In this document: positions 16,443 to 63,817 of the stretch, in pieces
Position numbering within the stretch: position 1 is the first letter of the stretch
Layout: each line of letters opens with the position of its first letter
NCBI GenBank assembly: GCA_964552475.1
Contig: CAZKFZ010000001.1
Span: forward strand, 35,347 to 99,346
Reading direction: 5' to 3'
Source: an uncultured Candidatus Saccharibacteria bacterium
Lineage (GTDB): Bacteria; Patescibacteriota; Saccharimonadia; CAILAD01; BJGX01
Length of the DNA stretch: 64,000 nucleotides
Position numbers and translations under genes: made by a program
Notes under the pieces: model-generated
Seen by the model: the letters and a program-made list of their open reading frames with translations, nothing else
Told to the model about the DNA's origin: nothing
Databases searched by the model: none

Positions 16443-16464
16443 TTACGCTAGTTTGTGCTAGTAT
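16436..16464 (+). promoter_or_regulatory. sigma70-like promoter for the GC-rich gene at 16505
   Basis: TTGACA, 17 nt spacer, TAGTAT. A GAGAGA RBS sits 5 nt before the ATG at 16505. Confidence 0.5.
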
Positions 16465-16504
16465 AGTTAGGCTCAAGTAAATCTACTGAAAGAGAGATGA
16501 GCAC

Positions 16505-16921
16505 ATGAACATCGACATCAGTGATCTCGACCGTGCAGCCGTGTTGGCCGCGCTCTTCAATGGGGCACGGGCTCAGGGCCTCGGTTTCATCGCTCACCAG
16601 GACGGCGACATGACCGTCGAGCAGGCTCAGGCCATCCTCAACTCCGGTACGACCTACTTCGACTACCTGCAGGGTAGGGTGATGAAGGTCGACCTCTCCG
16701 GCGACTCGTTCGACCCCTGGGGCTACGACCGCGACAACGGCGAGGGCGCTGCCCACTCCGTCATCCGCTCGCTGCGGCAGACCGGCTCGGCCTCCAACGT
16801 GGAGACCAGGCATCTGCACCAGCACGGCATGGCCGCCGCAGCCGACGAGCTTCGGGAGCACTACGGCGACGATCTCGCCGACGAGCTGGTCGGCGCCCGC
16901 CGACCGGTCAGCGAAAGCTGA
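16505..16921 (+). CDS. hypothetical protein with high-GC (actinobacterial-like) codon usage
   Basis: 138-aa ORF with strong G/C third-position bias (atc gac ctc gcc ...), in sharp contrast to the ~40% GC neighbours. The translation is protein-like. The antisense ORF 16448-16960 is judged a high-GC artefact. Confidence 0.6.
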   Translation: MNIDISDLDRAAVLAALFNGARAQGLGFIAHQDGDMTVEQAQAILNSGTTYFDYLQGRVMKVDLSGDSFDPWGYDRDNGEGAAHSVIRSLRQTGSASNVETRHLHQHGMAAAADELREHYGDDLADELVGARRPVSES

Positions 16922-17095
16922 CAAAAAGGTTTGCCAGTTCCTTTCAAAAACTGGCTCCACCTAAGTGTTTAATGATATTAAATTGAAAATTTGGGTGGCA
17001 AAAGGTTCCTTGCTGAGTATTAATCTAATGCTAAGTAAGGAGCTTTTAGCAAATAAAAGCTTTGTACCTGTCCCCAAAAAAAAGGAAAATGCAAA

Positions 17096-17539
17096 ATGAG
17101 TCGACGCTCACTCATGCAGTTGTCGTTTGTGGTGTTTACTACCGCGCTCAGCGTGGCGTACTACCACATCTACATGTCGCTCGACACCTTGGCGCGTCAA
17201 GCGCTTATCGAGATGGGCGACACCACCTACTACCCGCCAGAGAATCAGCTCTGGGTAGCTACCAAGATCGTCGCAATCTCAGCTACCTTCGTGGGTGCTG
17301 GCATGGTGGCACTGATGTTTTTTGCCTACCTTCTCATTATGGCAATGTGCAACCAAGAGATCAACTCAGCCATTCGTGACTGCGAAGAACTTGGTGGCAC
17401 GCTCACCTCAGAACCCATTAAGGTGTGCCACTGGTACAGCTACGACTGGTCGCTAACCGGTGAGTTGCCCAGCGGCGAGGAGTACATTCGCTACAACGGC
17501 GACAACTTCTTCGAGGTTTTTCCGTTCGTACACCACTAG
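17096..17539 (+). CDS. hypothetical membrane protein (GC-rich)
   Basis: 147 aa. Three hydrophobic helices then a Cys-containing soluble tail. AGGAAA RBS. Elevated GC. Confidence 0.55.
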   Translation: MSRRSLMQLSFVVFTTALSVAYYHIYMSLDTLARQALIEMGDTTYYPPENQLWVATKIVAISATFVGAGMVALMFFAYLLIMAMCNQEINSAIRDCEELGGTLTSEPIKVCHWYSYDWSLTGELPSGEEYIRYNGDNFFEVFPFVHH

Positions 17540-17557
17540 GGCCAAGTAGGCCCGCAG

Positions 17558-17589
17558 GGCCCCAACAATTGTTGGGGCCCTTTACCTAT
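17558..17589. repeat. copy 1 of a 22-nt perfect palindrome plus conserved tail (terminator-like repeat element)
   Basis: GGCCCCAACAATTGTTGGGGCC followed by CTTTACCTAT. The same 32-nt element with one substitution recurs at 19803-19834. It can fold as a 9-bp stem, AATT loop and T-rich tail. Confidence 0.8.
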
Positions 17590-17597
17590 AAAACATC

Positions 17598-17626
17598 TTG
17601 CAAATTTATAAATTTACTAGTATAAT
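17598..17626 (+). promoter_or_regulatory. sigma70-like promoter for the flotillin-like gene
   Basis: TTGCAA, 17 nt spacer, TATAAT, about 45 nt upstream of the ATG at 17672. Confidence 0.55.
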
Positions 17627-17671
17627 ACTGCATCGGAATGTATTTCCTAAACGAAAGGTCCAACAAAGGAC

Positions 17672-19765
17672 ATGGTACCTTCCAATACATATGTACTAGG
17701 CGCATCTGAGGGACTCCCAATTGTGCCTATTGTGCTTGGAGTTGTTGCATTTATTGCGCTACTTATCGTGGCGCGATTTATCGTAAAGAGCTTCAATATG
17801 ATTGGCCCAGATGAGTTTGGGTTGGTAGAGAAGCGCCTGGGCAAGAAGTTGCCAGAGGGTCAGTTAATCGCTTTTAACGGCGAGGCCGGCTATCAGGCGG
17901 AGTTGCTTCAGCCAGGCTTACGCTTCAAGCTCTGGCCTCTGTATTGGGTCACTAAGTACCCTCTGGTGCAGGTTGCTGCCGGTGAGATTGGTCTTGTTGT
18001 GGCCCAGGCCGGTGGTGATTTACCCCCAGGCTTCAAGTCTGGTGTCTACAAAGACGAGTTTGGTCTTTTTGCCAACCTAGAAACGTTTATTCAGAACGGT
18101 GGACAGCGTGGCGTGCAGAGACAGGTTTTGCCTCCGGGTACAACCCAGCAGATGCACCCTATCGCATTCATTGTACGGACTCGGTCTGAGACTTTCGGCA
18201 CGGTTTTGTCGGAGTCGGCTGAGGAAGTGCTGAATAGAATTCCGCCCGAAAAATTGGTGCCGTTCACTATTGAACCCCAGGGTCATACCGACGTAGTGGG
18301 TGTGGTTACTACACTCGAAGGCGCTCCGGCCAAAGGCATCGCCAGTCGGCTTGGTAACTTCGACGATGTAGTAGAAGCTGAGGCAGCAGATACGGCGGCT
18401 AACACCATCATCACAACGGTGCTTGCGCCCAAAAACAACCTGCACAACAACTACCAGGATTTCCAGGCTTTTCTGGATGCTGGTGGGTGCATTGGCCTCC
18501 AGCACGATCCACTACTTTACGGGCAGTACATGCTAAACCCCTACCTGGTTTCAGTTGAGCTTCGCGAGATGCTCGTTGTGCGCCAGGGCGAGGTTGCTGT
18601 GGTTAAGGCCTACGTAGGCCTACCCACCGAAGATACGTCTGGCGAGGAGTTTAAGTTTGGCTCTATTGTAGAGCCAGGTCATCAGGGTATTTGGTCGGAG
18701 CCACTGCGCACCGGCAAGTACACCCTTAACCCACGCATTTACGAGGCCGAGATTGTACCGACCTCTATCCTTACACTCAACTGGGCCAATGCAACCAGCG
18801 AGGCTCACAACCTCGATGGTTCGTTGTCGTCGATTCACGCCAAGAGCAAGGAAGCGTTCGATTTTAGCATTGATCTGCAGGTGCAGATTCACGTGCCCGA
18901 CACTCGAGCACCCAAGGTTATTAGCATGGTTGGTACCATGCAGAACCTGGTTAATGAGGTTCTGCAGTCGGCGGTAGGCAACTACTTCCGTAATACACTG
19001 CAGTCTCTAGGCGCCGCTGAGTTCATTCAGAAGCGTGACGAAGTCCAGGCCCAGGCCGAGAACTACGTCATGGGTTACCTCTCGCGTTATGAGGTAGAGG
19101 TGCGCGGTGTTTACATCCAGGATGTGGTCTTCCCACCAGAGTTGGTAGAGGTGCTTACAACGCGAGAAATCGCAGCACAGCAGACTCAAACCTACCAGAG
19201 CCAGATGGTAGCCGAGCAGGCTCGAATTGACCTGGAGAACCAAAAGGGCGTGGCCGATGCCCAGGCCGATTTGGCAAGGGCTCGGGTTTCGGTGGATGTT
19301 AACGATGCCGAGGCTCAGGCTGCGGTTAAGCGTGCTGAAGGTGAGGCTGCGGTCGTGCGTCAACGCGGTCAGGCTGCTGCCGATGTTACAAAGCTGACAG
19401 GTGAGGCTGAGGCTGCTGCCACACAAGCTACTGGTTTGGCCGAGGCCAAGGCCACCGAGGCCAAGGGTCTCGCGGTCGCCAAGGGCTTCGATGCTCAGCA
19501 GCGGGCTATTGGCCGTCAGCAGACTGGTTTGGTTGCTGCACTCGAGCAGATTGGCAAGGGTGGAGTGGTACTCACTCCGCAGATTCAGGTTGGTGGTGAC
19601 TCAGTAGGCTCTGGTCTACTAAACACCCTAATGACCTTAGGTGTCGATAAGATGGTGAACGACAACGGCGAGGGTTCGCCCGAGCTGGAGGCCGTTGATG
19701 CGTCGTCCGATGCTGAAGCCTCGGCTGAGCCGAGCGATGAAGCACCGTCAACCAACGAAGACTAA
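17672..19765 (+). CDS. SPFH/band-7 flotillin-family protein
   Basis: 697 aa. N-terminal TM, SPFH core (KSFNMIGPDEFGLVEKRLGK...), long C-terminal A/E/Q-rich repeats (AEAQAAVKRAEGEAAVVRQRGQAAAD...) typical of flotillin. Acidic tail. Elevated GC. Confidence 0.75.
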   Translation: MVPSNTYVLGASEGLPIVPIVLGVVAFIALLIVARFIVKSFNMIGPDEFGLVEKRLGKKLPEGQLIAFNGEAGYQAELLQPGLRFKLWPLYWVTKYPLVQVAAGEIGLVVAQAGGDLPPGFKSGVYKDEFGLFANLETFIQNGGQRGVQRQVLPPGTTQQMHPIAFIVRTRSETFGTVLSESAEEVLNRIPPEKLVPFTIEPQGHTDVVGVVTTLEGAPAKGIASRLGNFDDVVEAEAADTAANTIITTVLAPKNNLHNNYQDFQAFLDAGGCIGLQHDPLLYGQYMLNPYLVSVELREMLVVRQGEVAVVKAYVGLPTEDTSGEEFKFGSIVEPGHQGIWSEPLRTGKYTLNPRIYEAEIVPTSILTLNWANATSEAHNLDGSLSSIHAKSKEAFDFSIDLQVQIHVPDTRAPKVISMVGTMQNLVNEVLQSAVGNYFRNTLQSLGAAEFIQKRDEVQAQAENYVMGYLSRYEVEVRGVYIQDVVFPPELVEVLTTREIAAQQTQTYQSQMVAEQARIDLENQKGVADAQADLARARVSVDVNDAEAQAAVKRAEGEAAVVRQRGQAAADVTKLTGEAEAAATQATGLAEAKATEAKGLAVAKGFDAQQRAIGRQQTGLVAALEQIGKGGVVLTPQIQVGGDSVGSGLLNTLMTLGVDKMVNDNGEGSPELEAVDASSDAEASAEPSDEAPSTNED

Positions 19766-49856: not shown

Positions 49857-50567
49857 CTATATTTCTATACCAGCTTCCGCAGCATACTGGTCGAAGTTGG
49901 GTGCAGATCGATAGTTCAATGGAATATCTTGTCCTGCACCAGACCGTATGCCTTCGATGAGCATATTGGCATATTCACGTGGTGTTATGGTATTGCTACC
50001 AATAATTCGGTCGAGGTACTCTGGGTGAGTTAGAGCTCTGGGATAGAAGTGACTGATAGCTAGGCTAAATAAGTCTCTATCAAGATCTCTGAACTTTTGT
50101 GAGTACTCGATGTACGCCACTGCATCTTGAACTGCCTCTGGTGCATCACGCGCCTCGGCGTATTCAATTGCAGGCGGGAACAAATATTTTGCTCCGTTTT
50201 CTTGCCCTGGCACTCCGTTCCACGTTCCATAAGTGTACTGGTACTTGCCCGTTGCCGATGAGCCTGGAGCGTCTGCCAACGGGTTGCCTCGACTTTCATT
50301 GTAAGCGATTACTTGTAGAAACCGCTCAACTTCGTTTACCGTAATCTCTGGTGCTTCAAACTCAGATGATGAGCCAGCTTCAGTATCTGTGGCTTCTTCA
50401 TTACTTTGAGTATCTATGCTTTGGCTTGGCAGGTACGGCTTGGGCCATATCCACGAAACAAGCATAGGAAAAATGCAAAAAAAGATAACTACACCCACTA
50501 CCTTTTTTAGGTAATATTCTTTGGTGTACGTATCTTTATTAATACCTCTTGCTATACTGCTAGTCAT
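49857..50567 (-). CDS. membrane-anchored transglycosylase-like (Rpf/SLT-related) protein, divergent
   Basis: 236 aa. TM anchor, then AYNESRGNP...GSSATGKYQYTYGTWNG, which resembles the catalytic-Glu region and GxxQ...TW block of Rpf/lysozyme-like transglycosylases. Native low-GC composition. Confidence 0.5.
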   Translation of the reverse strand: MTSSIARGINKDTYTKEYYLKKVVGVVIFFCIFPMLVSWIWPKPYLPSQSIDTQSNEEATDTEAGSSSEFEAPEITVNEVERFLQVIAYNESRGNPLADAPGSSATGKYQYTYGTWNGVPGQENGAKYLFPPAIEYAEARDAPEAVQDAVAYIEYSQKFRDLDRDLFSLAISHFYPRALTHPEYLDRIIGSNTITPREYANMLIEGIRSGAGQDIPLNYRSAPNFDQYAAEAGIEI

Positions 50568-50856
50568 CCGATTTCAGGTTGAGAGCTCGTAAGACGAAGT
50601 ACAACAGAAACAGGCCAGACAAACCAAGCCCAACACAGATCAACACTTGGTATGCAACGTGGTGATATTGTTGTACCTGGGTGTGATTTGCATGCGCAAA
50701 GATGTTAAACCACCTAATTGCGCATCCTGCGAAGAGCAGGCAAATTACCAAGAGATAGGCGGTGAGTTTGGTAAAAACAGTATGCGCAACATTGAGTGCA
50801 AACGTTTTACAGATCGTCGCCATGTTCTTATTGAGATCAACTCCTGGCTGAGCCAT
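50560..50856 (-). CDS. small membrane protein (hypothetical)
   Basis: 98 aa with two TM helices. 8-nt overlap with the downstream gene. Confidence 0.45.
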   Translation of the reverse strand: MAQPGVDLNKNMATICKTFALNVAHTVFTKLTAYLLVICLLFAGCAIRWFNIFAHANHTQVQQYHHVAYQVLICVGLGLSGLFLLYFVLRALNLKSDD

Positions 50857-50974: not shown

Positions 50975-53698
50975 TTGATAAGTTATCTTGTAAAAGAGTA
51001 CAATCATAAGCATATTATGAAAACAACTACATCACATGATGATTTTGATAAAAAAGCTAATTTGACAAATAAGTCGCATAGTGAAGATATTCAAGGTAGT
51101 GCATCTATCAAAAAATCGCATCACCATCTTCTTAAAGAGCACTCTAGACACAAAAAGCATCGAAATCGCCTGCTTATAGTGTTGTGTATATTACTAGCAA
51201 TACTTACAGTGGTGGCTATTTTAGCAGCCATAAGATTTTACAAAATAAGAACAGCCCGAAACGACGCTTCAAAATCTCTTCAAAATGCCGTCAATCTCAA
51301 CCAAGCCTCAAAAAGCGTTCAGGTAATACACTCAAAACTAGGCTTTATGCTAAGTTACAGCAAGCAAATTTTGTCCGCCAACGCTACAATATTGCAAAAT
51401 GACGAAAAGACAGTAATAGTAACTGGCGACGATCTCAGTAAGTCTGACGACTACTCTATAGTAAATATCTATCCAAATAGCGCCGAACAAACCACTTTTC
51501 TAGATAGCCAAAGCATTAAAGTTACCGAACTTCAATTTTCTACCAATAACAGGAAAAACTTTTTTGATCTACGCAAAGAACAATTTGGTAACTTGAGCGA
51601 TCTAGACTTAACTATAAAGCATTTTGCACCGAAGGCAGACGACAAAACAACTGTAGAGCTTACTAAGCAAGAAGACGTAACTATCGCCGGCACAAACTAT
51701 AAAAAATTAACCTACAATATTACAAATACAGAATTTATTACCACAACAAATACCACTGTTCAGTATATAACGGTCCAAAATAGCCGGCCCTATGTAATAA
51801 GTATCAAAAATACCAACTTAGCCGATAGCGCACAATTGGCGAATCTCGAGGCAGTTCTTGAGACTGTTCAATACTCAAAGCCAGACAGTGATGCCAAATT
51901 TGTGAACCTTAGCCTACCTGGCGATATTGCTCTGGCTGCTAACACTGATACCACCAGTTCGCATTCAGAAATGCAACACCATAGTACTACTAACATTGTT
52001 TCGTCACAAACTACCAAAACTATCACCGACTTGGTGAATGAGACTGCGTTAAGAGTAGTAGCCAAAAACCAACCCGCCGTTGTGCGTATAGGTTCAATTA
52101 TCTGTATGAATTTTAGTATATTGTCGCCCAACAAACAGGTTGGGTTTAGTGCTTCTGATGCTTGTAATGCTGTGGCTGGTAGTGGTGCGATTGTTTCGAG
52201 CGATGGGTATATAAGCACTAACGGTCATGTCGTAACCGATATTCCAGCAAGGGTATTACAAACCTATCTAGTTTTGTCGTCTAATGCCAAGAACTTTGAA
52301 CCTTTAAAAAACTACCTAAAGTATCTTGTGAGCGCAAATATTATGAGTGCCAGCCAAGTAGATGCCTTGGTGACTGCACTTGCCAAGAATGACCCAACGG
52401 CGTCAGAAAAAATACTACAATCTACACTACTAATACCACCGGCAAATTTTCAAGTTACAAAAACCACCAGTCAATTTGGTGTACAGTTAAGTAACGAGCC
52501 TTTAAAAGTTACAATTAATGGTAGTAATCTTAGTTTTATAAATACCAGCACAAATGTTGTGGCGAAGCTAATTGGAGAAGATTTTGATGAAAGTTCTTTG
52601 CAACAAGAAGTGGCCGATCTAAGTAATTCTACCAGTTCTGACGTTGCACTACTAAAAATTGAAGGCAATAATTTTCCAGTTGCCAATCTAGGAACTATTG
52701 ATGAACTAAAAACTGCCAGCATTGTTACGGCTATGGGGTTTCCTGGATTTGTAGATGGCGGACTAACTACCAAGCAAACCACCACTATTCCTTCGGCTAC
52801 GCAAGGTAGGGTAGAAAACATTATTTTTGATTCGAAGACTAAACAGCGTAAAATTATCGAAACTACCGTACCAATAGCCGAGGGTAATTCTGGTGGACCT
52901 GGTTTTGCTGAGTCGGGGAATATTGTTGGCTTAGCTACGTATGCATTGCCATCTTCAGACCTAGAATCTGGTGTAAGTAAATTTTCCTCTGGCGGAATAC
53001 TGCGCGATATAGCTGATTTTAAGGCATTGCTTAGCAAAAAGAATATTACCTTAAATACCACTAGCCCAACCTCACAGTCATGGTTTGCTGGCATAGATGC
53101 TTTTGCGCAAGCTCATTATTCTAAAGCGTCACAGTATTTTGCCGAATCTCAAAAACAATATCCTGCAAACTATTTAGCAGCAGGTCTAATCTCTACAGCC
53201 AATTCAAAAGTTGCAGCCGGACAAGATTTACAAGAGACATCAAACACCACCATTTACTTGGTACTCGGTATAATTGTGGTGCTTATTGTGGCAATTATTG
53301 TTGTGGTAGTTGCTATTATGCATCATCATAAAAAAGCTAAGTTTATCGCGAATACTCTACCGCCCACAAACGATAGTGCTGCAGTTTCGCAGGCCATGAC
53401 AGGTGCAACACAAAATACTGCTAGCCCGAATAATTTACCCACTCAAACAACTACTGGATTAGATCCTATGGGTAGCGACAAGACCGTTACATTTGCTCCC
53501 TCAGCTAGCCTACAAACTCAGCAACCACAGCCTCCACAAGCGCCTACTACTCCACCATTACCATCTAATGAGCAATCTCTACATCCACAGCAATCTCAAC
53601 AAGAACTCCAGCAGCAAAATTCGCCTATCAATATTCCGCCGGATCCTCCAAACAGCGCCAAACCTAACGACCCAAAGCCCAACCAACTAGATAACTAG
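50975..53698 (+). CDS. two-TM membrane-anchored trypsin-like (S1) serine protease with a Pro/Gln-rich C-terminal tail
   Basis: 907 aa. TM1 (LLIVLCILLAILTVVAILAAI). Full triad in context: STNGHVV (His), SDVALLKI (Asp), AEGNSGGPGF (Ser). TM2 (IYLVLGIIVVLIVAIIVVVVAI). C-terminal tail PQPPQAPTTPPLP...QQ. Confidence 0.7.
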   Translation: MISYLVKEYNHKHIMKTTTSHDDFDKKANLTNKSHSEDIQGSASIKKSHHHLLKEHSRHKKHRNRLLIVLCILLAILTVVAILAAIRFYKIRTARNDASKSLQNAVNLNQASKSVQVIHSKLGFMLSYSKQILSANATILQNDEKTVIVTGDDLSKSDDYSIVNIYPNSAEQTTFLDSQSIKVTELQFSTNNRKNFFDLRKEQFGNLSDLDLTIKHFAPKADDKTTVELTKQEDVTIAGTNYKKLTYNITNTEFITTTNTTVQYITVQNSRPYVISIKNTNLADSAQLANLEAVLETVQYSKPDSDAKFVNLSLPGDIALAANTDTTSSHSEMQHHSTTNIVSSQTTKTITDLVNETALRVVAKNQPAVVRIGSIICMNFSILSPNKQVGFSASDACNAVAGSGAIVSSDGYISTNGHVVTDIPARVLQTYLVLSSNAKNFEPLKNYLKYLVSANIMSASQVDALVTALAKNDPTASEKILQSTLLIPPANFQVTKTTSQFGVQLSNEPLKVTINGSNLSFINTSTNVVAKLIGEDFDESSLQQEVADLSNSTSSDVALLKIEGNNFPVANLGTIDELKTASIVTAMGFPGFVDGGLTTKQTTTIPSATQGRVENIIFDSKTKQRKIIETTVPIAEGNSGGPGFAESGNIVGLATYALPSSDLESGVSKFSSGGILRDIADFKALLSKKNITLNTTSPTSQSWFAGIDAFAQAHYSKASQYFAESQKQYPANYLAAGLISTANSKVAAGQDLQETSNTTIYLVLGIIVVLIVAIIVVVVAIMHHHKKAKFIANTLPPTNDSAAVSQAMTGATQNTASPNNLPTQTTTGLDPMGSDKTVTFAPSASLQTQQPQPPQAPTTPPLPSNEQSLHPQQSQQELQQQNSPINIPPDPPNSAKPNDPKPNQLDN

Positions 53699-56898: not shown

Positions 56899-57711
56899 TT
56901 GAAAAAACCGAAAGGCGAAAAAGTGCCTACCAACAAATTAATTCGCGGTGAGGTTTTTAGAGGATCTACAGACGAGTGCTTTAAGGCATTTGTGAATAGA
57001 TTTGATAAGCCTCGCGAACAAAAGCTGTTTGCTCAGCTAATTAATGTTAGCTACCACTCTACATTAAGAGTATGGATTCGTAATGGTTTCAACACTCAGG
57101 GTGAGATTCTGTTGCGTGTTCGCGTAGTGCTAGAGCTATTTGGCTACAATTGTACGGAATGGGAAGATCTTGCCGACGAAGACAGAATAATTGCCTATGC
57201 AGTTGGTCTTGGTGTGTGTAGTGCTGCAGATGCTAGTGAGGCTCTAGCCTATGCTAGAACTAAGCAGTATCTAAGGTACATCCTACAAAGAACTGGACGC
57301 ACCAAAGACAAGGACGAGTTGGCTAAAGTATATGCTGAGATTGTCTTTTCAACAACTCAGCTACACATCGCCGAGTTTTGGGATAATGATGTAAAACAAA
57401 GCCCGGTGCTCTATAGAGCTAAGCCAGTTGCAACTAATGACGAATCAACTCTTATCGTATCTGCCCCAGACGAGACAACTCTATCTGTAGCAGAAGTTGA
57501 GAATGTCTTTGTTGCTTCGGTACAGGCTCTTTTACCTCTGGCTCGCTACTTCAATAGCGACGCGGTGAGCGAAGAGCAGCGTCGAGGCTTAAGAAAACGC
57601 GTAGGTTACGACGGTATTAGCGAGCTTAGTAGCTTGTTTGATTCACTCAGTAACGAACAAAGTCGTCGCAAGATTCGTGCCAACAGGAGCGAAGAGAGGA
57701 TTGTACGCTGA
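56899..57711 (+). CDS. HTH (XRE-like) domain protein, translationally coupled to a GHKL ATPase
   Basis: 270 aa. QKLFAQLINVSYHSTLRVWIRNG looks like a helix-turn-helix. TTGACT, 17 nt spacer, TAATAT promoter-like element at 56832-56860. Stop overlaps the next start (TGATG). Confidence 0.5.
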   Translation: MKKPKGEKVPTNKLIRGEVFRGSTDECFKAFVNRFDKPREQKLFAQLINVSYHSTLRVWIRNGFNTQGEILLRVRVVLELFGYNCTEWEDLADEDRIIAYAVGLGVCSAADASEALAYARTKQYLRYILQRTGRTKDKDELAKVYAEIVFSTTQLHIAEFWDNDVKQSPVLYRAKPVATNDESTLIVSAPDETTLSVAEVENVFVASVQALLPLARYFNSDAVSEEQRRGLRKRVGYDGISELSSLFDSLSNEQSRRKIRANRSEERIVR

Positions 57712-59378
57712 TGGCTAAACTCAAACCTCACGTAGGAGCGGCCATTATGGCCGCGGCCGAAACTTACCCATACGTATTTGCGGTTATCCTAGAGGCTATC
57801 CAGAACGCCATGGATGCCGATGCTCAGAACGTTTGGGTAGATATCAATCGTAAGAAGCGTGAAGTTCGCGTTTACGACGATGGCGTAGGTGTTACCAAAG
57901 AGAAGTTCGATATTGCTTTGCAAACCGTTGGACGAAGCATTAAGGGTGAGCAAGTAGATGCCTATGGTCAATTTGGCCGCGGCTTGGTGGCTCCTTTGGG
58001 CAAGTGTGATTACTTCACATTTACTTCTAATGGTCTGGAGTGGACCTTTGTTACCGAAGACATCGAAAACTCGGCTGACGAAGTGGATGTTCCCGAAAAA
58101 GAAGTAGAGATTGTTTTTTCTAAGAGTCAACAAAAACGTCAAAAACACCCAGTAAACCCCAATTGGCGTACCCGCATGGTGATGTATGGTGTCACCAAAG
58201 ACCGCAAGACGTCGGAGTTTGATGTGAACAAGTTGGCTGCTACCGCGGTTACCAACTTCCGCACCAAGATGCTTCGAAACGAAACAGTCTTGCGCTTTAC
58301 CGTACAACCCCTGAAGGGCCCAGAATACACCTTTACAACGGTGGCTGAGCCTTATAGTGGCACTAAGCTTGATCCGTTCGTTTTCGAGCCGAGGCGAGAC
58401 AAATTGGTAGAGATCAAGCTGTTCTTGGCACTTCATATTGAAGGTAAGTATAGCGGTAGTGTTTCTACTGGTACCCTGGCTACACCTTACCGCGTACCAT
58501 TTGAGACTCTCTTAAAAAACCAAAGAAGCCTTACAGATCTACTAGACGACGAGATCGTTCAGGCGCTTTGTTCGGGAATTTTTGAAGGAGAGTTGCTTAG
58601 CAACACTCTTACTTTGAGCCCCGAGCGAGTAAGCTATGAAGACAACGATGGTTTTGTAGAGTTCTGTATGGCACTAGAGAACTGGTATGAGCATACTGGT
58701 AGGGAATACTACCAAGAGGCTCTTAGCCGAGAAGACTCTGAAAGATTTGAAAAAAATGCCGAAAAAGCTTTAGATGCTCTCAACAAGCTTTTTGAAGACC
58801 CATCTATGAGAATGTATGCTGATCTCGTTGGTCGGTTTCCTGCCGATCTCCCTGGTACAGGGGCGCAAGGCCCCGACCCAACCGGTGACGACGAAGAAAC
58901 TGATGTGCCTGCCAGCAAAACACCTAGCCCAAAGAAGACCGGTGAGGGTGGTAGCCCTGGTGGCGGAAACGGTACTGGAGGCGACAACCCAACACCTGGC
59001 GGTGGGGGTGGTGGTAAAAATGGAGGAAATGGTCGAACCACCGATGGTGGCGAAACAAAGGTTCCGGATCCATCTGGTAAGGAGCGTAAAACCGTCAAGG
59101 CGAAGTCGTTTGGCTTGCGCCTAGGTGAAACTCAACACCTAAGTGGACCTTGGCAACTAGATTTACGAGTTGGTGTTTTGTGGATTAACACCAAGCACCC
59201 CTTGTACTTACAGTGCGCCGACTACAGTCGAAACCCCGACCTTTGTATTCGTCGCTATCAACAGCACGTGGCCATTCAGGCTCTTAGCCTGCATTGTTCA
59301 CCTGAAGAATCACAAAAGCACGCAGCCGAGGTGCTCGACACCGAGCTTGCTGCCTTTGTTATCTTGCTAACTCAGTAG
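57711..59378 (+). CDS. MORC/MutL-like GHKL (Bergerat-fold) ATPase, HATPase_c_3-type
   Basis: 555 aa. N-box ILEAIQNAMDA, G1 VYDDGVGVT, G2 YGQFGRGLVAPLGKCDYFTFTS. C-terminal Gly-rich low-complexity segment (GEGGSPGGGNGTGGDNPTPGGGGGGKNGGNG). No MutL endonuclease motif. Confidence 0.7.
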   Translation: MAKLKPHVGAAIMAAAETYPYVFAVILEAIQNAMDADAQNVWVDINRKKREVRVYDDGVGVTKEKFDIALQTVGRSIKGEQVDAYGQFGRGLVAPLGKCDYFTFTSNGLEWTFVTEDIENSADEVDVPEKEVEIVFSKSQQKRQKHPVNPNWRTRMVMYGVTKDRKTSEFDVNKLAATAVTNFRTKMLRNETVLRFTVQPLKGPEYTFTTVAEPYSGTKLDPFVFEPRRDKLVEIKLFLALHIEGKYSGSVSTGTLATPYRVPFETLLKNQRSLTDLLDDEIVQALCSGIFEGELLSNTLTLSPERVSYEDNDGFVEFCMALENWYEHTGREYYQEALSREDSERFEKNAEKALDALNKLFEDPSMRMYADLVGRFPADLPGTGAQGPDPTGDDEETDVPASKTPSPKKTGEGGSPGGGNGTGGDNPTPGGGGGGKNGGNGRTTDGGETKVPDPSGKERKTVKAKSFGLRLGETQHLSGPWQLDLRVGVLWINTKHPLYLQCADYSRNPDLCIRRYQQHVAIQALSLHCSPEESQKHAAEVLDTELAAFVILLTQ

Positions 59379-59388
59379 TTAATACACA

Positions 59389-59418
59389 AGCCCCTAGGAC
59401 ATTATTCTAGGGGCTTTT
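59389..59418 (+). terminator. rho-independent terminator
   Basis: AGCCCCTAG-gacattatt-CTAGGGGCT followed by TTTT, 11 nt after the stop. Confidence 0.7.
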
Positions 59419-59430
59419 ACTTATGTGGCA

Positions 59431-59459
59431 TTGACATACACCAATTTTGTTGCTACAAT
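59431..59459 (+). promoter_or_regulatory. consensus sigma70 promoter
   Basis: TTGACA, 17 nt spacer, TACAAT, 43 nt upstream of the 59502 start. Confidence 0.6.
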
Positions 59460-59501
59460 CTCAAAGACCATTTTGTCGGGTGAATTGCCCGCAGAACAAA
59501 G

Positions 59502-60167
59502 GTGGATCTTTTGACAGATAAGAAGAAAACTAGACTTCACAACGAAGATGAGTGGATTAAGATACTTAACAAGGTCTTAAGGGCCCTACAAGCCATGCCG
59601 GGCGATGAGTCTGGTAACCGAGTATTTACCCTCAGAGAACTCCTAGAGCCACTTGATCTATATGGCCACAGAGCTACTATTTCGCGCCATCTTAGCTATA
59701 TGCGAGTGATGGTAAAGGGCGATAAGCAGCCTACTGGCAGATATTTATGGCACGTAGACATGACCAAGAAGCGCATTACCGCTAACGATCTTCGAAATGC
59801 ACGCGAGCGTCACACCAAGAGAATCTATGCAACTCAAAACATCAAGCCAAAAACTAGAGCGCCTAAGAAGCCGGTAAAGACACAGTCGAGTCCGGGAGTG
59901 GTTGATGCAACTGCAAAGTCAGAAGGTGTTGAACCAGCAGAAGACGCAAATGATGGTTTTCCAAACCTTGTGGCTTTGGCATCTGAGCTTCAGGCTAAGG
60001 TAGACGAAATCGTAAGCAGGCTCCGCGCTTTGAATGCTGAGATTGTAGCAGAAGAGAGGTCCCTTGCTGCCAAGCGTACGCTTTACGCAGAGCTGGAGTC
60101 GGAATATATTCCGCTCAGCGAAGCTGTTCGGAATGCTACAGCTAGCTTAATGAAAGCTAGCTCGTAA
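59502..60167 (+). CDS. hypothetical protein (basic N-terminal region, coiled-coil C-terminus)
   Basis: 221 aa. GTG start at 59502, or TTG at 59511. Own promoter and terminator. Confidence 0.5.
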   Translation: MDLLTDKKKTRLHNEDEWIKILNKVLRALQAMPGDESGNRVFTLRELLEPLDLYGHRATISRHLSYMRVMVKGDKQPTGRYLWHVDMTKKRITANDLRNARERHTKRIYATQNIKPKTRAPKKPVKTQSSPGVVDATAKSEGVEPAEDANDGFPNLVALASELQAKVDEIVSRLRALNAEIVAEERSLAAKRTLYAELESEYIPLSEAVRNATASLMKASS

Positions 60168-60582: not shown

Positions 60583-61317
60583 TTAAAGGAGCTCTACAAA
60601 ACCACCAGGATAGTTGGGGTTGTCTAGTCGCCACGCTTGGCCCTTGCCAAGAGCTGGGTCAACAACCATAGGTGTATGCGATTCACATAGCGGGCATTCA
60701 CCGGCATCAAATTGTTGCATGTTGATATTAACTACGGCGTAAAGATACGGTACGCCCAAGTCTTCTGCAGTAACGCCGCCACGACTCACAAAGCAGACCA
60801 CACCAATTACGTTACCGCCAGCTTGGCGAACACATTCAATTACCTCTAGTGTGCTAGTACCAGAATTGAGTACATCTTCAACCACCAGTACACTTTTACC
60901 ATCGCAAGCCTTAGCAAAACCGGTGCGTTCTAAGGCAAAAGTGCCATCAGATAGCTTGTCGGCAAAAACGTGCAAAACTTGGTCAGGAAAAGACCCGGGT
61001 CGCGTGCCCATATCGGCATTTTTATAGGCTATTCGCTCATTGTATTTATCGGCAACCATCAAACCAAAGCTAATTGCGCCCACCGCTGGGTCGGCAACAA
61101 CATCTGGAATGTAATGTCTGGTGTCGCCAATGGCGCGTACCATCTTGGTTGCGATAGTCGCAATAGCTACAGGTTGGTACAATACAGGGTCAACATTGAT
61201 ATAGGCATGTCCATGCTTGCCAGACTTATATACAAAATGTTTACCCTCAAATACTAAACAACCAAAGTTGCTTAGCATATCTTGAGTTTGTTGTGATAAT
61301 GCGCCTCGGCTAGACAT
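60583..61317 (-). CDS. pyrE: orotate phosphoribosyltransferase-like type I PRTase
   Basis: 244 aa. VLVVEDVLNSGTS (PRPP-binding motif). N-terminal FEGKHFVYKSGKHGHAYIN is similar to the OPRTase N-terminus. Adjacent to pyrF. C-terminal extension with CPLC. Confidence 0.65.
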   Translation of the reverse strand: MSSRGALSQQTQDMLSNFGCLVFEGKHFVYKSGKHGHAYINVDPVLYQPVAIATIATKMVRAIGDTRHYIPDVVADPAVGAISFGLMVADKYNERIAYKNADMGTRPGSFPDQVLHVFADKLSDGTFALERTGFAKACDGKSVLVVEDVLNSGTSTLEVIECVRQAGGNVIGVVCFVSRGGVTAEDLGVPYLYAVVNINMQQFDAGECPLCESHTPMVVDPALGKGQAWRLDNPNYPGGFVELL

Positions 61318-61319
61318 TC

Positions 61320-62186
61320 TTATGGTCTCCGTTCGTTGAGGTGGAACTGAATTTGCTGAGTAAGTTTGTAAGTCTCAGCCCTAGCGACTTCAGCAAAATC
61401 CTTACCACTACTGGCAAAAATAATACCCCTACTAGAGTTAATTACAAATCCTCCCTCATCTGTAGCTGCATTAAGCACCGAAGCTTTTAATTCGCCACCT
61501 TGGGCACCAACGCCTGGTATAAGCAGAGGAGTAGTAGGAGCATACAATCTGACTTCGGCAATCTCTTGAGGAGTGGTAGCACCGGTCACTAGACCGCAGT
61601 TGTGGTTCGTATTCCAAGATGTCTCTACTCTATATGCCACCTCGGTAAACACTCTAACGCCCCGGGCATTGTCCATACCACTTAGCTCTAAGTCTTGAAA
61701 CTCATCTGCACCATCGTTACTAGTGCGACAAAGTACAAAGATTAGTTTATCAGGATTGTCCAAGAAGGGCTGATTAGCCACTAGTCCCATGTAGCTGTGA
61801 ATTGTAAGAGCATCGGCCCCACAAAACTCAAAAGCGAACTGAACATAGCCCAAGTTCGTATTGCCAATATCGCCAAACTTGGCATCGAGAATTACTACTA
61901 CATCTGGGAATCTTGCATGTATATATGCAATAGTTTCTCTAAGAGCCTCAAGCCCGTCGGGGTTGTACAGATAGAAAGCAAGGTTGAGCTTAAAAGCTGC
62001 AGCCATGTTACCATTAGCATCGCTAATTTGTTGATTGAACTCAACTTGCTCGTCTGCACCCACTGGCCATGGATTCCTATTAGCAATATGATCAGGCAGT
62101 TTAGAAATATCGCTATCTAAACCAACACATACAAACTTGCCTTCAGCCCATTTGGCCTTTAGCTTATCTAATGCTGTTGTCACCAA
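61320..62186 (-). CDS. pyrF: orotidine-5'-phosphate decarboxylase (type 2, long form)
   Basis: 288 aa. FVCVGLDSD, ILDAKFGDIGNT (catalytic Lys), PGVGAQGG. Confidence 0.75.
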   Translation of the reverse strand: MVTTALDKLKAKWAEGKFVCVGLDSDISKLPDHIANRNPWPVGADEQVEFNQQISDANGNMAAAFKLNLAFYLYNPDGLEALRETIAYIHARFPDVVVILDAKFGDIGNTNLGYVQFAFEFCGADALTIHSYMGLVANQPFLDNPDKLIFVLCRTSNDGADEFQDLELSGMDNARGVRVFTEVAYRVETSWNTNHNCGLVTGATTPQEIAEVRLYAPTTPLLIPGVGAQGGELKASVLNAATDEGGFVINSSRGIIFASSGKDFAEVARAETYKLTQQIQFHLNERRP

Positions 62187-62309: not shown

Positions 62310-62786
62310 TTGTACGTAAAAAAAGCGGAGAGTGTTGTGTCTGATTGTACCGAGGTAATTGCCAAGGCCCGAGAGCGAAGTTTGGCTGTAGTGTTAGAAA
62401 AAGACGACTTGGGCCACGAAATGCGCGACAAGTGGGCTATTGCTCGCTCTAGGCTAGGCCTAAGTGATCCAATAGGTGTTCGAGACTTTCAAGCGGAAAT
62501 TACAGCATCTTTTAAGCCCTACATAGGGCAAAGGTGTACTGTTCGACATCCTAATCCTTCTAAGCCTAGCCATACCAACTATTCCACCATGGGCTGGTTG
62601 TGGCGAGTAGAATTTGTAGGCAACGTACCTGGAGAGGCAGCCTACTTAGTTGTGGCTACTAGCATTCGCGAGCTACCCAATTACAAAACTAAGGCGCTAG
62701 CAGTGGCGCGTATTGCATTTTCTACCATTACTGCAGTAGAGTTTGATCTCTCAGATTGGTGGCTAGATTTCGACTATCGGCTCTAG
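62310..62786 (+). CDS. hypothetical protein
   Basis: The ORF track starts at TTG 62310. GTG at 62337 (VSDCTEV) with a GGAGAG RBS 5 nt upstream is the more likely start. Confidence 0.45.
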   Translation: MYVKKAESVVSDCTEVIAKARERSLAVVLEKDDLGHEMRDKWAIARSRLGLSDPIGVRDFQAEITASFKPYIGQRCTVRHPNPSKPSHTNYSTMGWLWRVEFVGNVPGEAAYLVVATSIRELPNYKTKALAVARIAFSTITAVEFDLSDWWLDFDYRL

Positions 62787-62827
62787 GTGTAACAACCTAG
62801 AGCTTTTTATATACAAAAAGCCCCCGT

Positions 62828-62856
62828 TTATAGGGAGCTTTTTGCTTTTGTTTTAG
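62828..62856. terminator. imperfect hairpin with T-run between convergent genes
   Basis: AGCCCCC-gtttat-AGGGAGCT followed by TTTTT. Confidence 0.35.
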
Positions 62857-62878: not shown

Positions 62879-63484
62879 TTATAACAATCCAAGCTTACGC
62901 GCACAGGCAGGCCATGGAGACCAACCGCGAGCGGCTTGAGTGGCACGAGCCTTGGCATCTTGCACCTCTGGAGGAGCAAGGTCAGGGCGGGCATAGCCAC
63001 CGTAGTTACCCCAGGTACGCATATCGTACTGGTAGGCACCATAGTAACCGTTACCGGTGTTTTTGTTATAGTCACCACCAGCTTCACAGTATCGTAACTG
63101 AGCAAAAGCGTCGTCACCACCGATAACCAGTTTAGCCTTAGCTGGAGCAGCACTTACGCGCGCAACAGTAGCAGCTTGGTTGGCAGCAGCTTGAGCTTCT
63201 GCAGCTTTTTGGGCTTCAGCAGCTTTGGCAGCTTGAGCGGCCTTAAGAGGAGCAACGACATCAGTGTCGAATGATCCCTTATTGGCTTTTAGCTCAAGAG
63301 CACCAGGAGCTTTTGTGTTAATTGTCAATGTGTAGTTACTTGGTACAACAGTTGTGGCTTCGGCAGCCTTAGCTGTTTCGGTGAGTGGTACTTGTACCGT
63401 GGCAATCACCTGTTGTGCAATCATTGCGATAGCAATGGCTGCTTGGGGTATTAGGCGCATAGTTGTTGAATACGTCGATCTCAA
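62879..63484 (-). CDS. resuscitation-promoting-factor (Rpf) family muralytic transglycosylase, membrane-anchored
   Basis: 201 aa. TM anchor, Ala-rich linker (AAQAAKAAEAQKAAEAQAAANQAA), C-terminal LRYCEAGGDYNKNTGNGYYGAYQYDMRTWGNYGG...GWSPWPACARKLGL, a near-consensus Rpf domain (CESGG...NTGNGYYGGLQF..TW...GW..WP.C..KLGL). Locally GC-enriched, partly from Ala codons. Confidence 0.8.
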   Translation of the reverse strand: MRSTYSTTMRLIPQAAIAIAMIAQQVIATVQVPLTETAKAAEATTVVPSNYTLTINTKAPGALELKANKGSFDTDVVAPLKAAQAAKAAEAQKAAEAQAAANQAATVARVSAAPAKAKLVIGGDDAFAQLRYCEAGGDYNKNTGNGYYGAYQYDMRTWGNYGGYARPDLAPPEVQDAKARATQAARGWSPWPACARKLGLL

Positions 63485-63817
63485 TAAATTGAGAGTGGCG
63501 GTTCAGCTGACGCGTCGTACTCCTTTCGATTAATGTTATTTCAACTGTCCTGTACAGGGTCTTAAATAAGGCCCATCTACAGAACGACCGCTAGTATACC
63601 AAACATAAGCACTTTTGTCAATAGTTATTTTGTGAATTATACGTATCTACAGGTTAGATATTAAGTACCATTTATGCTTGACAGACTAAAATAGCCTTAA
63701 AATCACATAAATAACAAATACTGGTAATATGTTATAATTGGGTTATCTAATCGCACCTATAGATATAAGGAGAACGTCCTTGCTATACAATGAGACCAAC
63801 TCAAACGTGGTGGAGTT

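Follow-up and report, generated by a model that had tools for sequence, protein, structure and literature searches.

The window (the whole stretch of 64,000 nucleotides analyzed here) carries two transglycosylase-like genes on its minus strand, and their features, together with the signals around the first of them, are collected in Table 1. The open reading frame picked out in an earlier reading of the letters alone (the sequence-only reading) is present at 62879-63484, along with the peptide strings quoted from it, as an ORF of 201 aa when counted from TTG. The actual start of this Rpf-like gene, however, is probably the ATG at 63460, which yields a protein of 193 aa beginning MRLIPQ; we prefer this start because homologs are mostly 182-195 aa long, cover 96% of the query and begin with MR, and the TTG at 63484, which served as the start for the ORF finder, adds 8 aa to it. 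Residue numbers below count from the ATG at 63460 unless TTG numbering is stated.

Table 1 Features of the Rpf-like gene and of the second transglycosylase-like gene, in window coordinates
Feature	Position	Strand	Details
Rpf-like CDS (probable start)	62879-63460	-	193 aa from ATG 63460; stop codon 62879-62881
N-terminal export signal (predicted)	63365-63460	-	residues 1-32; N-termini of 51 homologs
Family-specific N-terminal module	63209-63349	-	residues 38-84; conserved alignment columns
Ala/Gln/Lys/Glu-rich spacer	63155-63271	-	residues 64-102; one long helix in AF2 model
Rpf-type transglycosylase-like catalytic domain (PF06737)	62882-63124	-	residues 113-193
Cys125-Glu126 codons (CEAGG)	63083-63088	-	read from the sequence; aligned to RpfB
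Cys186 codon (WPAC motif)	62903-62905	-	read from the sequence; aligned to RpfB WPVC
Sigma-70-like promoter (candidate)	63593-63621	-	TTGACA-17 nt-(TG)TATACT; 11/12 consensus positions
Intrinsic-terminator-like hairpin and T-run	62821-62836	-	43 nt past the stop codon
Second transglycosylase-like gene	49857-50567	-	236 aa; invariant Glu91; separate family

The first 32 residues of the protein open with MR, followed by a hydrophobic stretch some 13 residues long, a conserved proline (Pro25) and an A-x-A motif (A-K-A followed by A). They probably form a cleavable Sec signal peptide, with a signal-anchor as the alternative: the short hydrophobic stretch, the conserved proline and the A-x-A motif favor cleavage over a 20-residue transmembrane anchor, and the N-terminal helix in the AF2 model spans only residues 4-16. 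The sequence-only reading had described a membrane-anchored protein with an Ala-rich spacer, and both the export signal and a helical spacer are borne out, but the anchor is unproven, the features looking more like those of a cleavable Sec signal.

Between signal and catalytic domain lies a module with the pattern NYxLxxNT...LE...FDxxVxAPLKAAQ, in which F64 and P71 are invariant in the alignment of 51 homologs, and to which a Pfam scan gave no match (residues 38-84). When a profile of the module was compared with 1.84 billion representative proteins it matched 40, nearly all of them about 80-220 aa long with the module at around residues 40-86, and this shared length and position indicate that the module is confined to the short Rpf-like family. 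No fusion of the module to other enzymes was found among these matches; the very long proteins among them match its Asn/Thr-rich first half only, as repeats, and look spurious. The AF2 model, built from the 51-sequence alignment and of low confidence (mean pLDDT only 59), has a beta-hairpin at residues 43-59, a long helix at 64-102 and a helical region over 118-189. Block pLDDT is 67-79 over residues 61-90, which take in most of the spacer, and the length of the spacer differs between homologs.

The catalytic domain and a distant homolog in the window

PF06737 is the only family that Pfam recognizes in the protein (E = 4.8e-18, 66 bits vs. a gathering threshold of 27; residues 127-194 in TTG numbering), with no match to G5, DUF348 or LysM. 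The solved domains of RpfB, RpfC and RpfE from M. tuberculosis also match it, with E-values from 1.8e-16 to 5.7e-9, the best match being RpfB (1XSF), and the alignment to RpfB reaches some 20 aa past the N-terminal edge of the domain, short of any recognizable G5. In this alignment the CEAGG of the Rpf-like protein falls on the CEAGG of RpfB and its WPAC on WPVC. An alignment check for an inactive catalytic Glu, which the sequence-only reading had called for, found the codons of Glu126 (GAA, 63083-63085), Cys125 (63086-63088) and Cys186 (62903-62905) all intact, and Cys125, Glu126 and Cys186 are invariant across 51 homologs. Glu126 is thus the predicted catalytic acid, Cys125 and Cys186 are predicted to pair in a disulfide, and the sequence homology to solved Rpf structures leads us to infer a lysozyme-like fold for the domain.

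The assignment to an Rpf-type muralytic domain made in the sequence-only reading therefore stands, but its description as near-consensus Rpf was overstated. Two motif subtypes of PF06737 can be told apart in the alignment, a classical "GG[LV]QF...EQI" subtype that is RpfB-like, and an "AYQ[FY]...VQD" subtype to which the Rpf-like protein belongs, together with proteins of Frankia, Mycobacteriales and Acidimicrobiia. The scores against NCBIfam equivalogs are also well short of their cut-offs (52.8 vs. 180 bits for NF046106, Rpf, and 53.2 vs. 200 bits for NF046107, RpfC). The protein belongs in the PF06737 family but does not count as an Rpf or RpfC equivalog.

Compared with M. tuberculosis RpfB (PDB 1XSF, 3EO5, 4KL7, 5E27), RpfC and RpfE, the window protein has in common the homologous PF06737 domain, taken to be lysozyme-like, and with RpfB in particular the motifs CEAGG, NTGNGYYG and TW and the second cysteine in WPxC; both it (by prediction) and the M. 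tuberculosis proteins are exported. It differs in reading "AYQY...VQDAKA" where RpfB has "GGVQF...EQIAVA", in lacking DUF348 and G5, and in belonging to an organism that is not actinobacterial.

The second gene had been noted in the sequence-only reading as a much more divergent transglycosylase-like gene, and this too is upheld. Against PF06737 it reaches E = 0.0065, below the Pfam threshold, while hhalign of its family against the Rpf-like family gives a probability of 94% (E = 1.1e-7) over an alignment that spans the catalytic Glu and the GKYQY..TW and APE.VQDA motifs. This profile comparison confirms the second gene as a distant homolog of the Rpf-like family, and its Glu91 is invariant in a set of 26 homologous sequences. 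Most of its 25 homologs are 355-413 aa long and end in a CHAP, Peptidase_C39_2 or M23 domain, that is, they are built like bifunctional wall hydrolases (transglycosylase-like plus CHAP/C39/M23), whereas the copy in the window, like a relative 78% identical to it, ends at 236 aa and has no peptidase domain. We take the bifunctional architecture of these homologs to resemble that of Gram-positive conjugation/T4SS hydrolases such as CwlT and TcpG.

Distribution and origin of the short Rpf-like family

We collected 654 homologs of the Rpf-like protein, the best 120 of which are full-length or nearly so, most of those listed covering 96% of the query; the few that carry a name are labeled Saccharibacteria, Parcubacteria or "bacterium". 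The closest genome match is a contig of an uncultured Candidatus Saccharibacteria (L001; 90% identity), in agreement with the earlier remark that the genome does not look actinobacterial and with the overall GC content of the window (0.41). As a domain-only protein search returned short proteins (<140 aa), almost none of them with a taxon name, labeled genome loci were used for phylogeny. Among 70 such loci, all full-length matches come from Saccharibacteria, Saccharimonadia or Patescibacteria, bar one complete genome labeled "bacterium", and full-length orthologs with identities down to 41% are found across Saccharimonadia. Members of this family, the window protein included, are about 185-195 aa long and combine an N-terminal signal, the FDxxVxAP module, an Ala-rich helix and a C-terminal "AYQY...VQDAKA...GWSPWPAC" domain; the family seems limited to Saccharibacteria and related Patescibacteria. 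NCBI already labels its members "transglycosylase family protein".

The short family is one of at least three PF06737 domain clades in Saccharibacteria, the others consisting of proteins of about 380-410 aa (L029, L040, L045-52) and of classical-type proteins of about 217-227 aa (L036, L058, L069, L070). A protein similar to the longer type is SEML1_0667 of Ca. Southlakia epibionticum ML1, for which Wang et al. (2023, Cell; PMC10633639) give, in their Table S2, G5, PF06737 and two PF03990 matches, a structural match to RpfB (5e27) and KEGG K21688, and which is the sole PF06737 match of the S. epibionticum genome in that table. Table S1 of the same paper (PMC10633639) lists it as a core family that is not Patescibacteria-enriched and as non-essential by Tn-seq at 3/3 time points. 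SEML1_0667 and the window protein are both Saccharibacterial proteins with a PF06737 domain, but the former, with 392 aa and an RpfB-like layout (two PF03990/G5-linked-ubiquitin-like matches, G5, PF06737), resembles the clade of about 400 aa and not the short family of the 193-aa window protein. Since the single PF06737 match listed for S. epibionticum is RpfB-like, this organism appears to be without the short family. The family is therefore not shared by all Saccharibacteria and cannot be a division enzyme on which the entire phylum depends. Full-text searches of the literature found no main-text discussion of Rpf-type enzymes or peptidoglycan hydrolases in Saccharibacteria or Patescibacteria, only the supplementary-table entry; the presence of PF06737 in the phylum is thus already on record, and the short family itself is uncharacterized.

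The GC content of the Rpf-like gene is 0.51, compared with 0.41 for the window, a local enrichment that the sequence-only reading had rightly seen and had linked to a host-derived origin. Resolved by codon position, the values are 0.62 (GC1), 0.54 (GC2) and 0.371 (GC3), vs. window means of 0.52, 0.38 and 0.385 +/- 0.09, respectively. The extra GC at the first and second positions is explained by a protein rich in Ala and Gly, and with GC3 at its native level the raised GC of the gene is no sign of foreign origin. Short-family orthologs in other Saccharibacteria have GC3 values of 0.35-0.66 that roughly track the GC of their own genomes; those of actinobacterial PF06737 genes range from 0.62 to 0.98 and are mostly above 0.8. 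Elsewhere in the window, the segment 16448-19765 (GC3 0.58-0.72) is a genuine compositional island.

Phylogeny points the same way on the claim of host origin. In a neighbor-joining tree (200 bootstraps) of 69 taxon-labeled domains, drawn from all labeled loci together with RpfB, the Rpf-like domain sits in a clade of 14 sequences with 94% bootstrap support that consists exclusively of Saccharibacteria/Patescibacteria. A phylogenetic check on the claim had been set beforehand, and given this placement inside a clade of the same lineage, along with the native GC3, the orthologs whose GC3 roughly follows their genomes and the core-gene context described below, the claim is not supported. The actinobacterial sequences in the tree had been fetched by two 8-mers of the query (YQYDMRTW and GWSPWPAC), which biases them toward the closest actinobacterial relatives, and they fall outside the clade despite this bias. 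Domain identity to the window protein is 73-100% inside the clade vs. 61-66% for the closest labeled non-CPR domains, which belong to actinobacterial "AYQF/VQD" proteins (e.g. Actinophytocola oryzae, Frankia, Parafrankia, Mycobacteriales MAGs); these are of the same motif subtype, but have other N- and C-terminal extensions and a GC3 of 0.8-0.98. When 24 unlabeled short proteins were added, support for the enlarged clade fell to 42%, with no labeled non-CPR sequence inside it. Support for the deep nodes of the domain tree is below 50%, so the tree is as compatible with a gene transfer long ago between Actinobacteria and Saccharibacteria as with none.

The neighborhood of the gene consists of core genes. 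The order Rpf - pyrF (OMP decarboxylase) - phosphoribosyltransferase - ... - LOG-like is kept in L001, where pyrF is recognized by Pfam, and in a second locus (L002). Relatives that are more distant have an ABC exporter, rpsB-tsf-frr, relA/spoT or typA near their Rpf-like gene. No phage or mobile-element genes were found beside it, whether in the window or in L001 and L002.

Phages do carry the domain. PF06737 occurs in 54 records of GenBank phages, often within tape-measure proteins, and 51 of these are Mycobacterium, Rhodococcus or Streptomyces phages, the other 3 being named only "Bacteriophage"; their domains are 42-50% identical to that of the window among the 15 matches listed, and all 54 stay below 60%. 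In addition, three phage-like metagenomic contigs (L072, L075, L076; GC 0.43-0.49) with HNH endonucleases, amidase endolysins, CHAP or holin carry Rpf-like domains that are 62-74% identical to that of the window and fall beside the Saccharibacterial clade. A match to PHROG 29757 ("transglycosylase") has E = 8e-11. The domain family is common to actinophages and the window protein, but the actinophage domains sit inside tail tape-measure proteins or within other genes of the phage, whereas the window gene is chromosomal and has a predicted signal peptide.

Set against these data, the idea that the gene came recently, by horizontal transfer, from an actinobacterial host or actinophage is highly improbable: the raw GC and a domain typical of Actinobacteria and their phages would be in line with such an event, but the native GC3, the CPR-only clade, the full-length orthologs across Saccharimonadia, the syntenic core genes and the lower identities of actinobacterial (at most 66%) and phage domains all speak against it. 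We find it equally hard to believe that the gene is what is left of a lysis gene or tail-associated gene of a prophage, as the phage-like contigs and the PHROG match might suggest, since there are no flanking phage genes and the architecture of signal peptide plus family module is conserved on chromosomes of divergent genomes. Judged by composition, phylogeny and synteny, the Rpf-like gene is an old, conserved and probably vertically inherited gene of the Saccharibacteria lineage, and no recent theft from an actinobacterial host.

Expression, selection and possible function

The Rpf-like gene is bracketed by a candidate promoter and a terminator-like hairpin, which suggests that it is a monocistronic unit. 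A consensus scan of the region returned 3 promoter sites vs. 1.7 expected by chance, which makes for weak evidence, and a transcript from the candidate promoter would begin with a leader of about 125 nt. Actinobacterial rpf genes can carry c-di-AMP riboswitches. For the window gene we reject a riboswitch or structured leader, as an Rfam scan of 63380-63760 gave chance matches only and the fold of the leader has z = -1.1. The coding sequence is under purifying selection, with dN/dS values, against seven orthologs, of 0-0.15 in the catalytic domain and 0.14-0.49 in the N-terminal part.

We consider it moderately likely that the gene belongs to the short family by vertical descent and that its product is a Sec-exported peptidoglycan glycosidase acting mainly in the remodeling of the cell's own wall. 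The gene would form a transcription unit by itself, with a promoter and a terminator of its own, and the protein would then be exported via its N-terminal Sec signal, with the helical region holding or spacing the catalytic domain. Glu126 of the CEAGG motif, in a fold pinned by the Cys125-Cys186 disulfide, would cut peptidoglycan at its beta-1,4 glycosidic bonds, and the own wall, of Gram-positive type, would thereby be remodeled for growth, for septation or to make room for envelope-spanning machines, in parallel with Rpf proteins in Actinobacteria. This role on the own wall is favored by the slow, housekeeping-like evolution of the gene, by its core-gene context and by analogy.

A secreted enzyme at the interface of episymbiont and host could equally act on the wall of the host. 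Cultivated Saccharibacteria are epibionts growing on Actinobacteria (PMC10633639), and a host-directed effector would cut the peptidoglycan of the actinobacterial host at the attachment site and so open the wall to pili, to secretion systems or to the uptake of nutrients. Such a role would fit a protein that is predicted to be exported, whose catalytic site is intact, and whose domain type is otherwise mainly actinobacterial, with the closest labeled actinobacterial domains 63-66% identical, and hence plausibly suited to that wall chemistry. We nevertheless regard it as rather unlikely: Pfam recognizes no host-wall-binding domain (LysM, G5) in the protein, no pilus or secretion genes are linked to the gene within the window, and the catalytic domain evolves slowly, unlike typical host-interaction effectors. 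SEML1_0667, as listed in Table S1 of PMC10633639, is moreover non-essential in co-culture with the host, though this RpfB-like protein is a different paralog.

A wider version of the same idea, in which the protein is a host-interaction tool of environmental Saccharibacteria that either opens host peptidoglycan or frees stimulating muropeptides, with the N-terminal module as a targeting element, strikes us as doubtful. More doubtful still, and in our judgment very unlikely, is a growth or "resuscitation" signal, whereby the secreted enzyme would free muropeptides that rouse dormant actinobacterial hosts or stimulate them. Its only grounds are that the catalytic domain is homologous to those of Rpf proteins and that Saccharibacteria are known to associate with Actinobacteria, and it sits poorly with a protein of a different sequence subtype that falls short of the Rpf and RpfC equivalogs (53 bits vs. 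cut-offs of 180 and 200). The preferred reading remains that of a glycosidase directed mainly at the wall of the cell that makes it.

The results here amount to one more member of a known enzyme family, and nothing beyond that. Rpf-type domains are firmly established in Saccharibacteria, where they come in three or more architectures, and are no marker of recent gene theft from actinobacterial hosts. The short Rpf-like family could help reveal how ultrasmall epibionts build, divide or breach walls of the Gram-positive type.

Compositional and gene-order variation across the window

Across the window, the segment at 16448-19765 is a true compositional island, with a GC content of 0.50-0.55 and a GC3 of 0.58-0.72 compared with a window mean GC3 of 0.385. 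This island, which encodes a flotillin-like protein and includes an unassigned ORF (16505-16921), makes a far stronger case for recent horizontal transfer than the Rpf-like gene does.

We also examined a segment of three genes at 56899-60167 with elevated GC (0.45-0.49), flanked by a LOG-like gene and the phosphoribosyltransferase. Because the same flanking genes lie only ~440 bp apart in L001, a close relative and uncultured Candidatus Saccharibacteria contig, this segment looks like an insertion at a variable hotspot. Its middle gene encodes a GHKL/HATPase_c_3 ATPase head and gives weak matches to MutL, a BbrUII/HgiDII-type restriction enzyme and MzaB, which suggests a defence or mobile island.

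Closer to the Rpf-like gene, the 158-aa ORF has a strong terminator-like hairpin at its end (62779-62804). It has zero Pfam or NCBIfam matches and no relative by tblastn in L001 or L002 (a second relative that keeps the local gene order). In both relatives pyrF immediately adjoins the Rpf-like gene, and the ORF may be a lineage-specific insertion. Searches for RNA genes across the 64-kb window (1-64000) found none, with 0 Rfam matches at gathering thresholds and 0 tRNAs from ARAGORN.

Features of the window and of related phage-like contigs (window positions unless a contig is named)
Feature	Position	Strand	Length (aa)	Remarks
ORF	16505-16921			inside island 16448-19765
Hydrophobic ORF, likely membrane	17096-17539		147	inside island 16448-19765
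SPFH/Band-7 (flotillin-like) protein	17672-19765		697	Pfam E=5.7e-20
Hydrophobic ORF, likely small membrane protein	50560-50856		98	overlaps 49857-50567
Protein with hydrophobic segments and trypsin-like protease domain	50975-53698		907	neighbour of 49857-50567
Middle gene of 56899-60167	57711-59378			GHKL/HATPase_c_3 ATPase head
OMP-decarboxylase-like (pyrF) and adjoining phosphoribosyltransferase	60583-62186	-		phosphoribosyltransferase possibly pyrE-like
ORF	62310-62786	+	158	between pyrF and Rpf-like gene
Small Rpf-like gene	L072 5001-5357			phage-like metagenomic contig
Small Rpf-like gene	L075 2601-2963			phage-like metagenomic contig
Small Rpf-like gene	L076 1776-2177			phage-like metagenomic contig

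Relatives of the Rpf-like domain and the second transglycosylase-like gene

The Rpf-like domains of the three phage-like contigs share 62-74% identity with the window domain, nearer to it than any labelled actinobacterial sequence or isolated-phage domain. The contigs have a GC of 0.43-0.49, and their gene content spans HNH endonucleases, a TROVE/Ro-like protein, Amidase_2 endolysins, and CHAP or a holin. They may be phages of Saccharibacteria or of other mid-GC hosts.

In the family to which the second transglycosylase-like gene (49857-50567, minus strand) belongs, a CHAP, C39 or M23 peptidase domain normally sits at the C-terminus; the window copy is shortened. Together with the small hydrophobic ORF and the protease-domain protein beside it, this gene may form a wall-remodelling cluster. 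In a collection of 5.8 billion proteins, its product has a 100%-identical entry on a 205-kb contig (P0234), and the best match to the Rpf-like protein (62879-63484) is just 90% identical.

The pyrF-phosphoribosyltransferase pair

Both L001 and L002 keep the pyrF-phosphoribosyltransferase pair. Saccharibacteria are generally described as unable to make nucleotides de novo. The two genes may represent an orotate-to-UMP salvage step.
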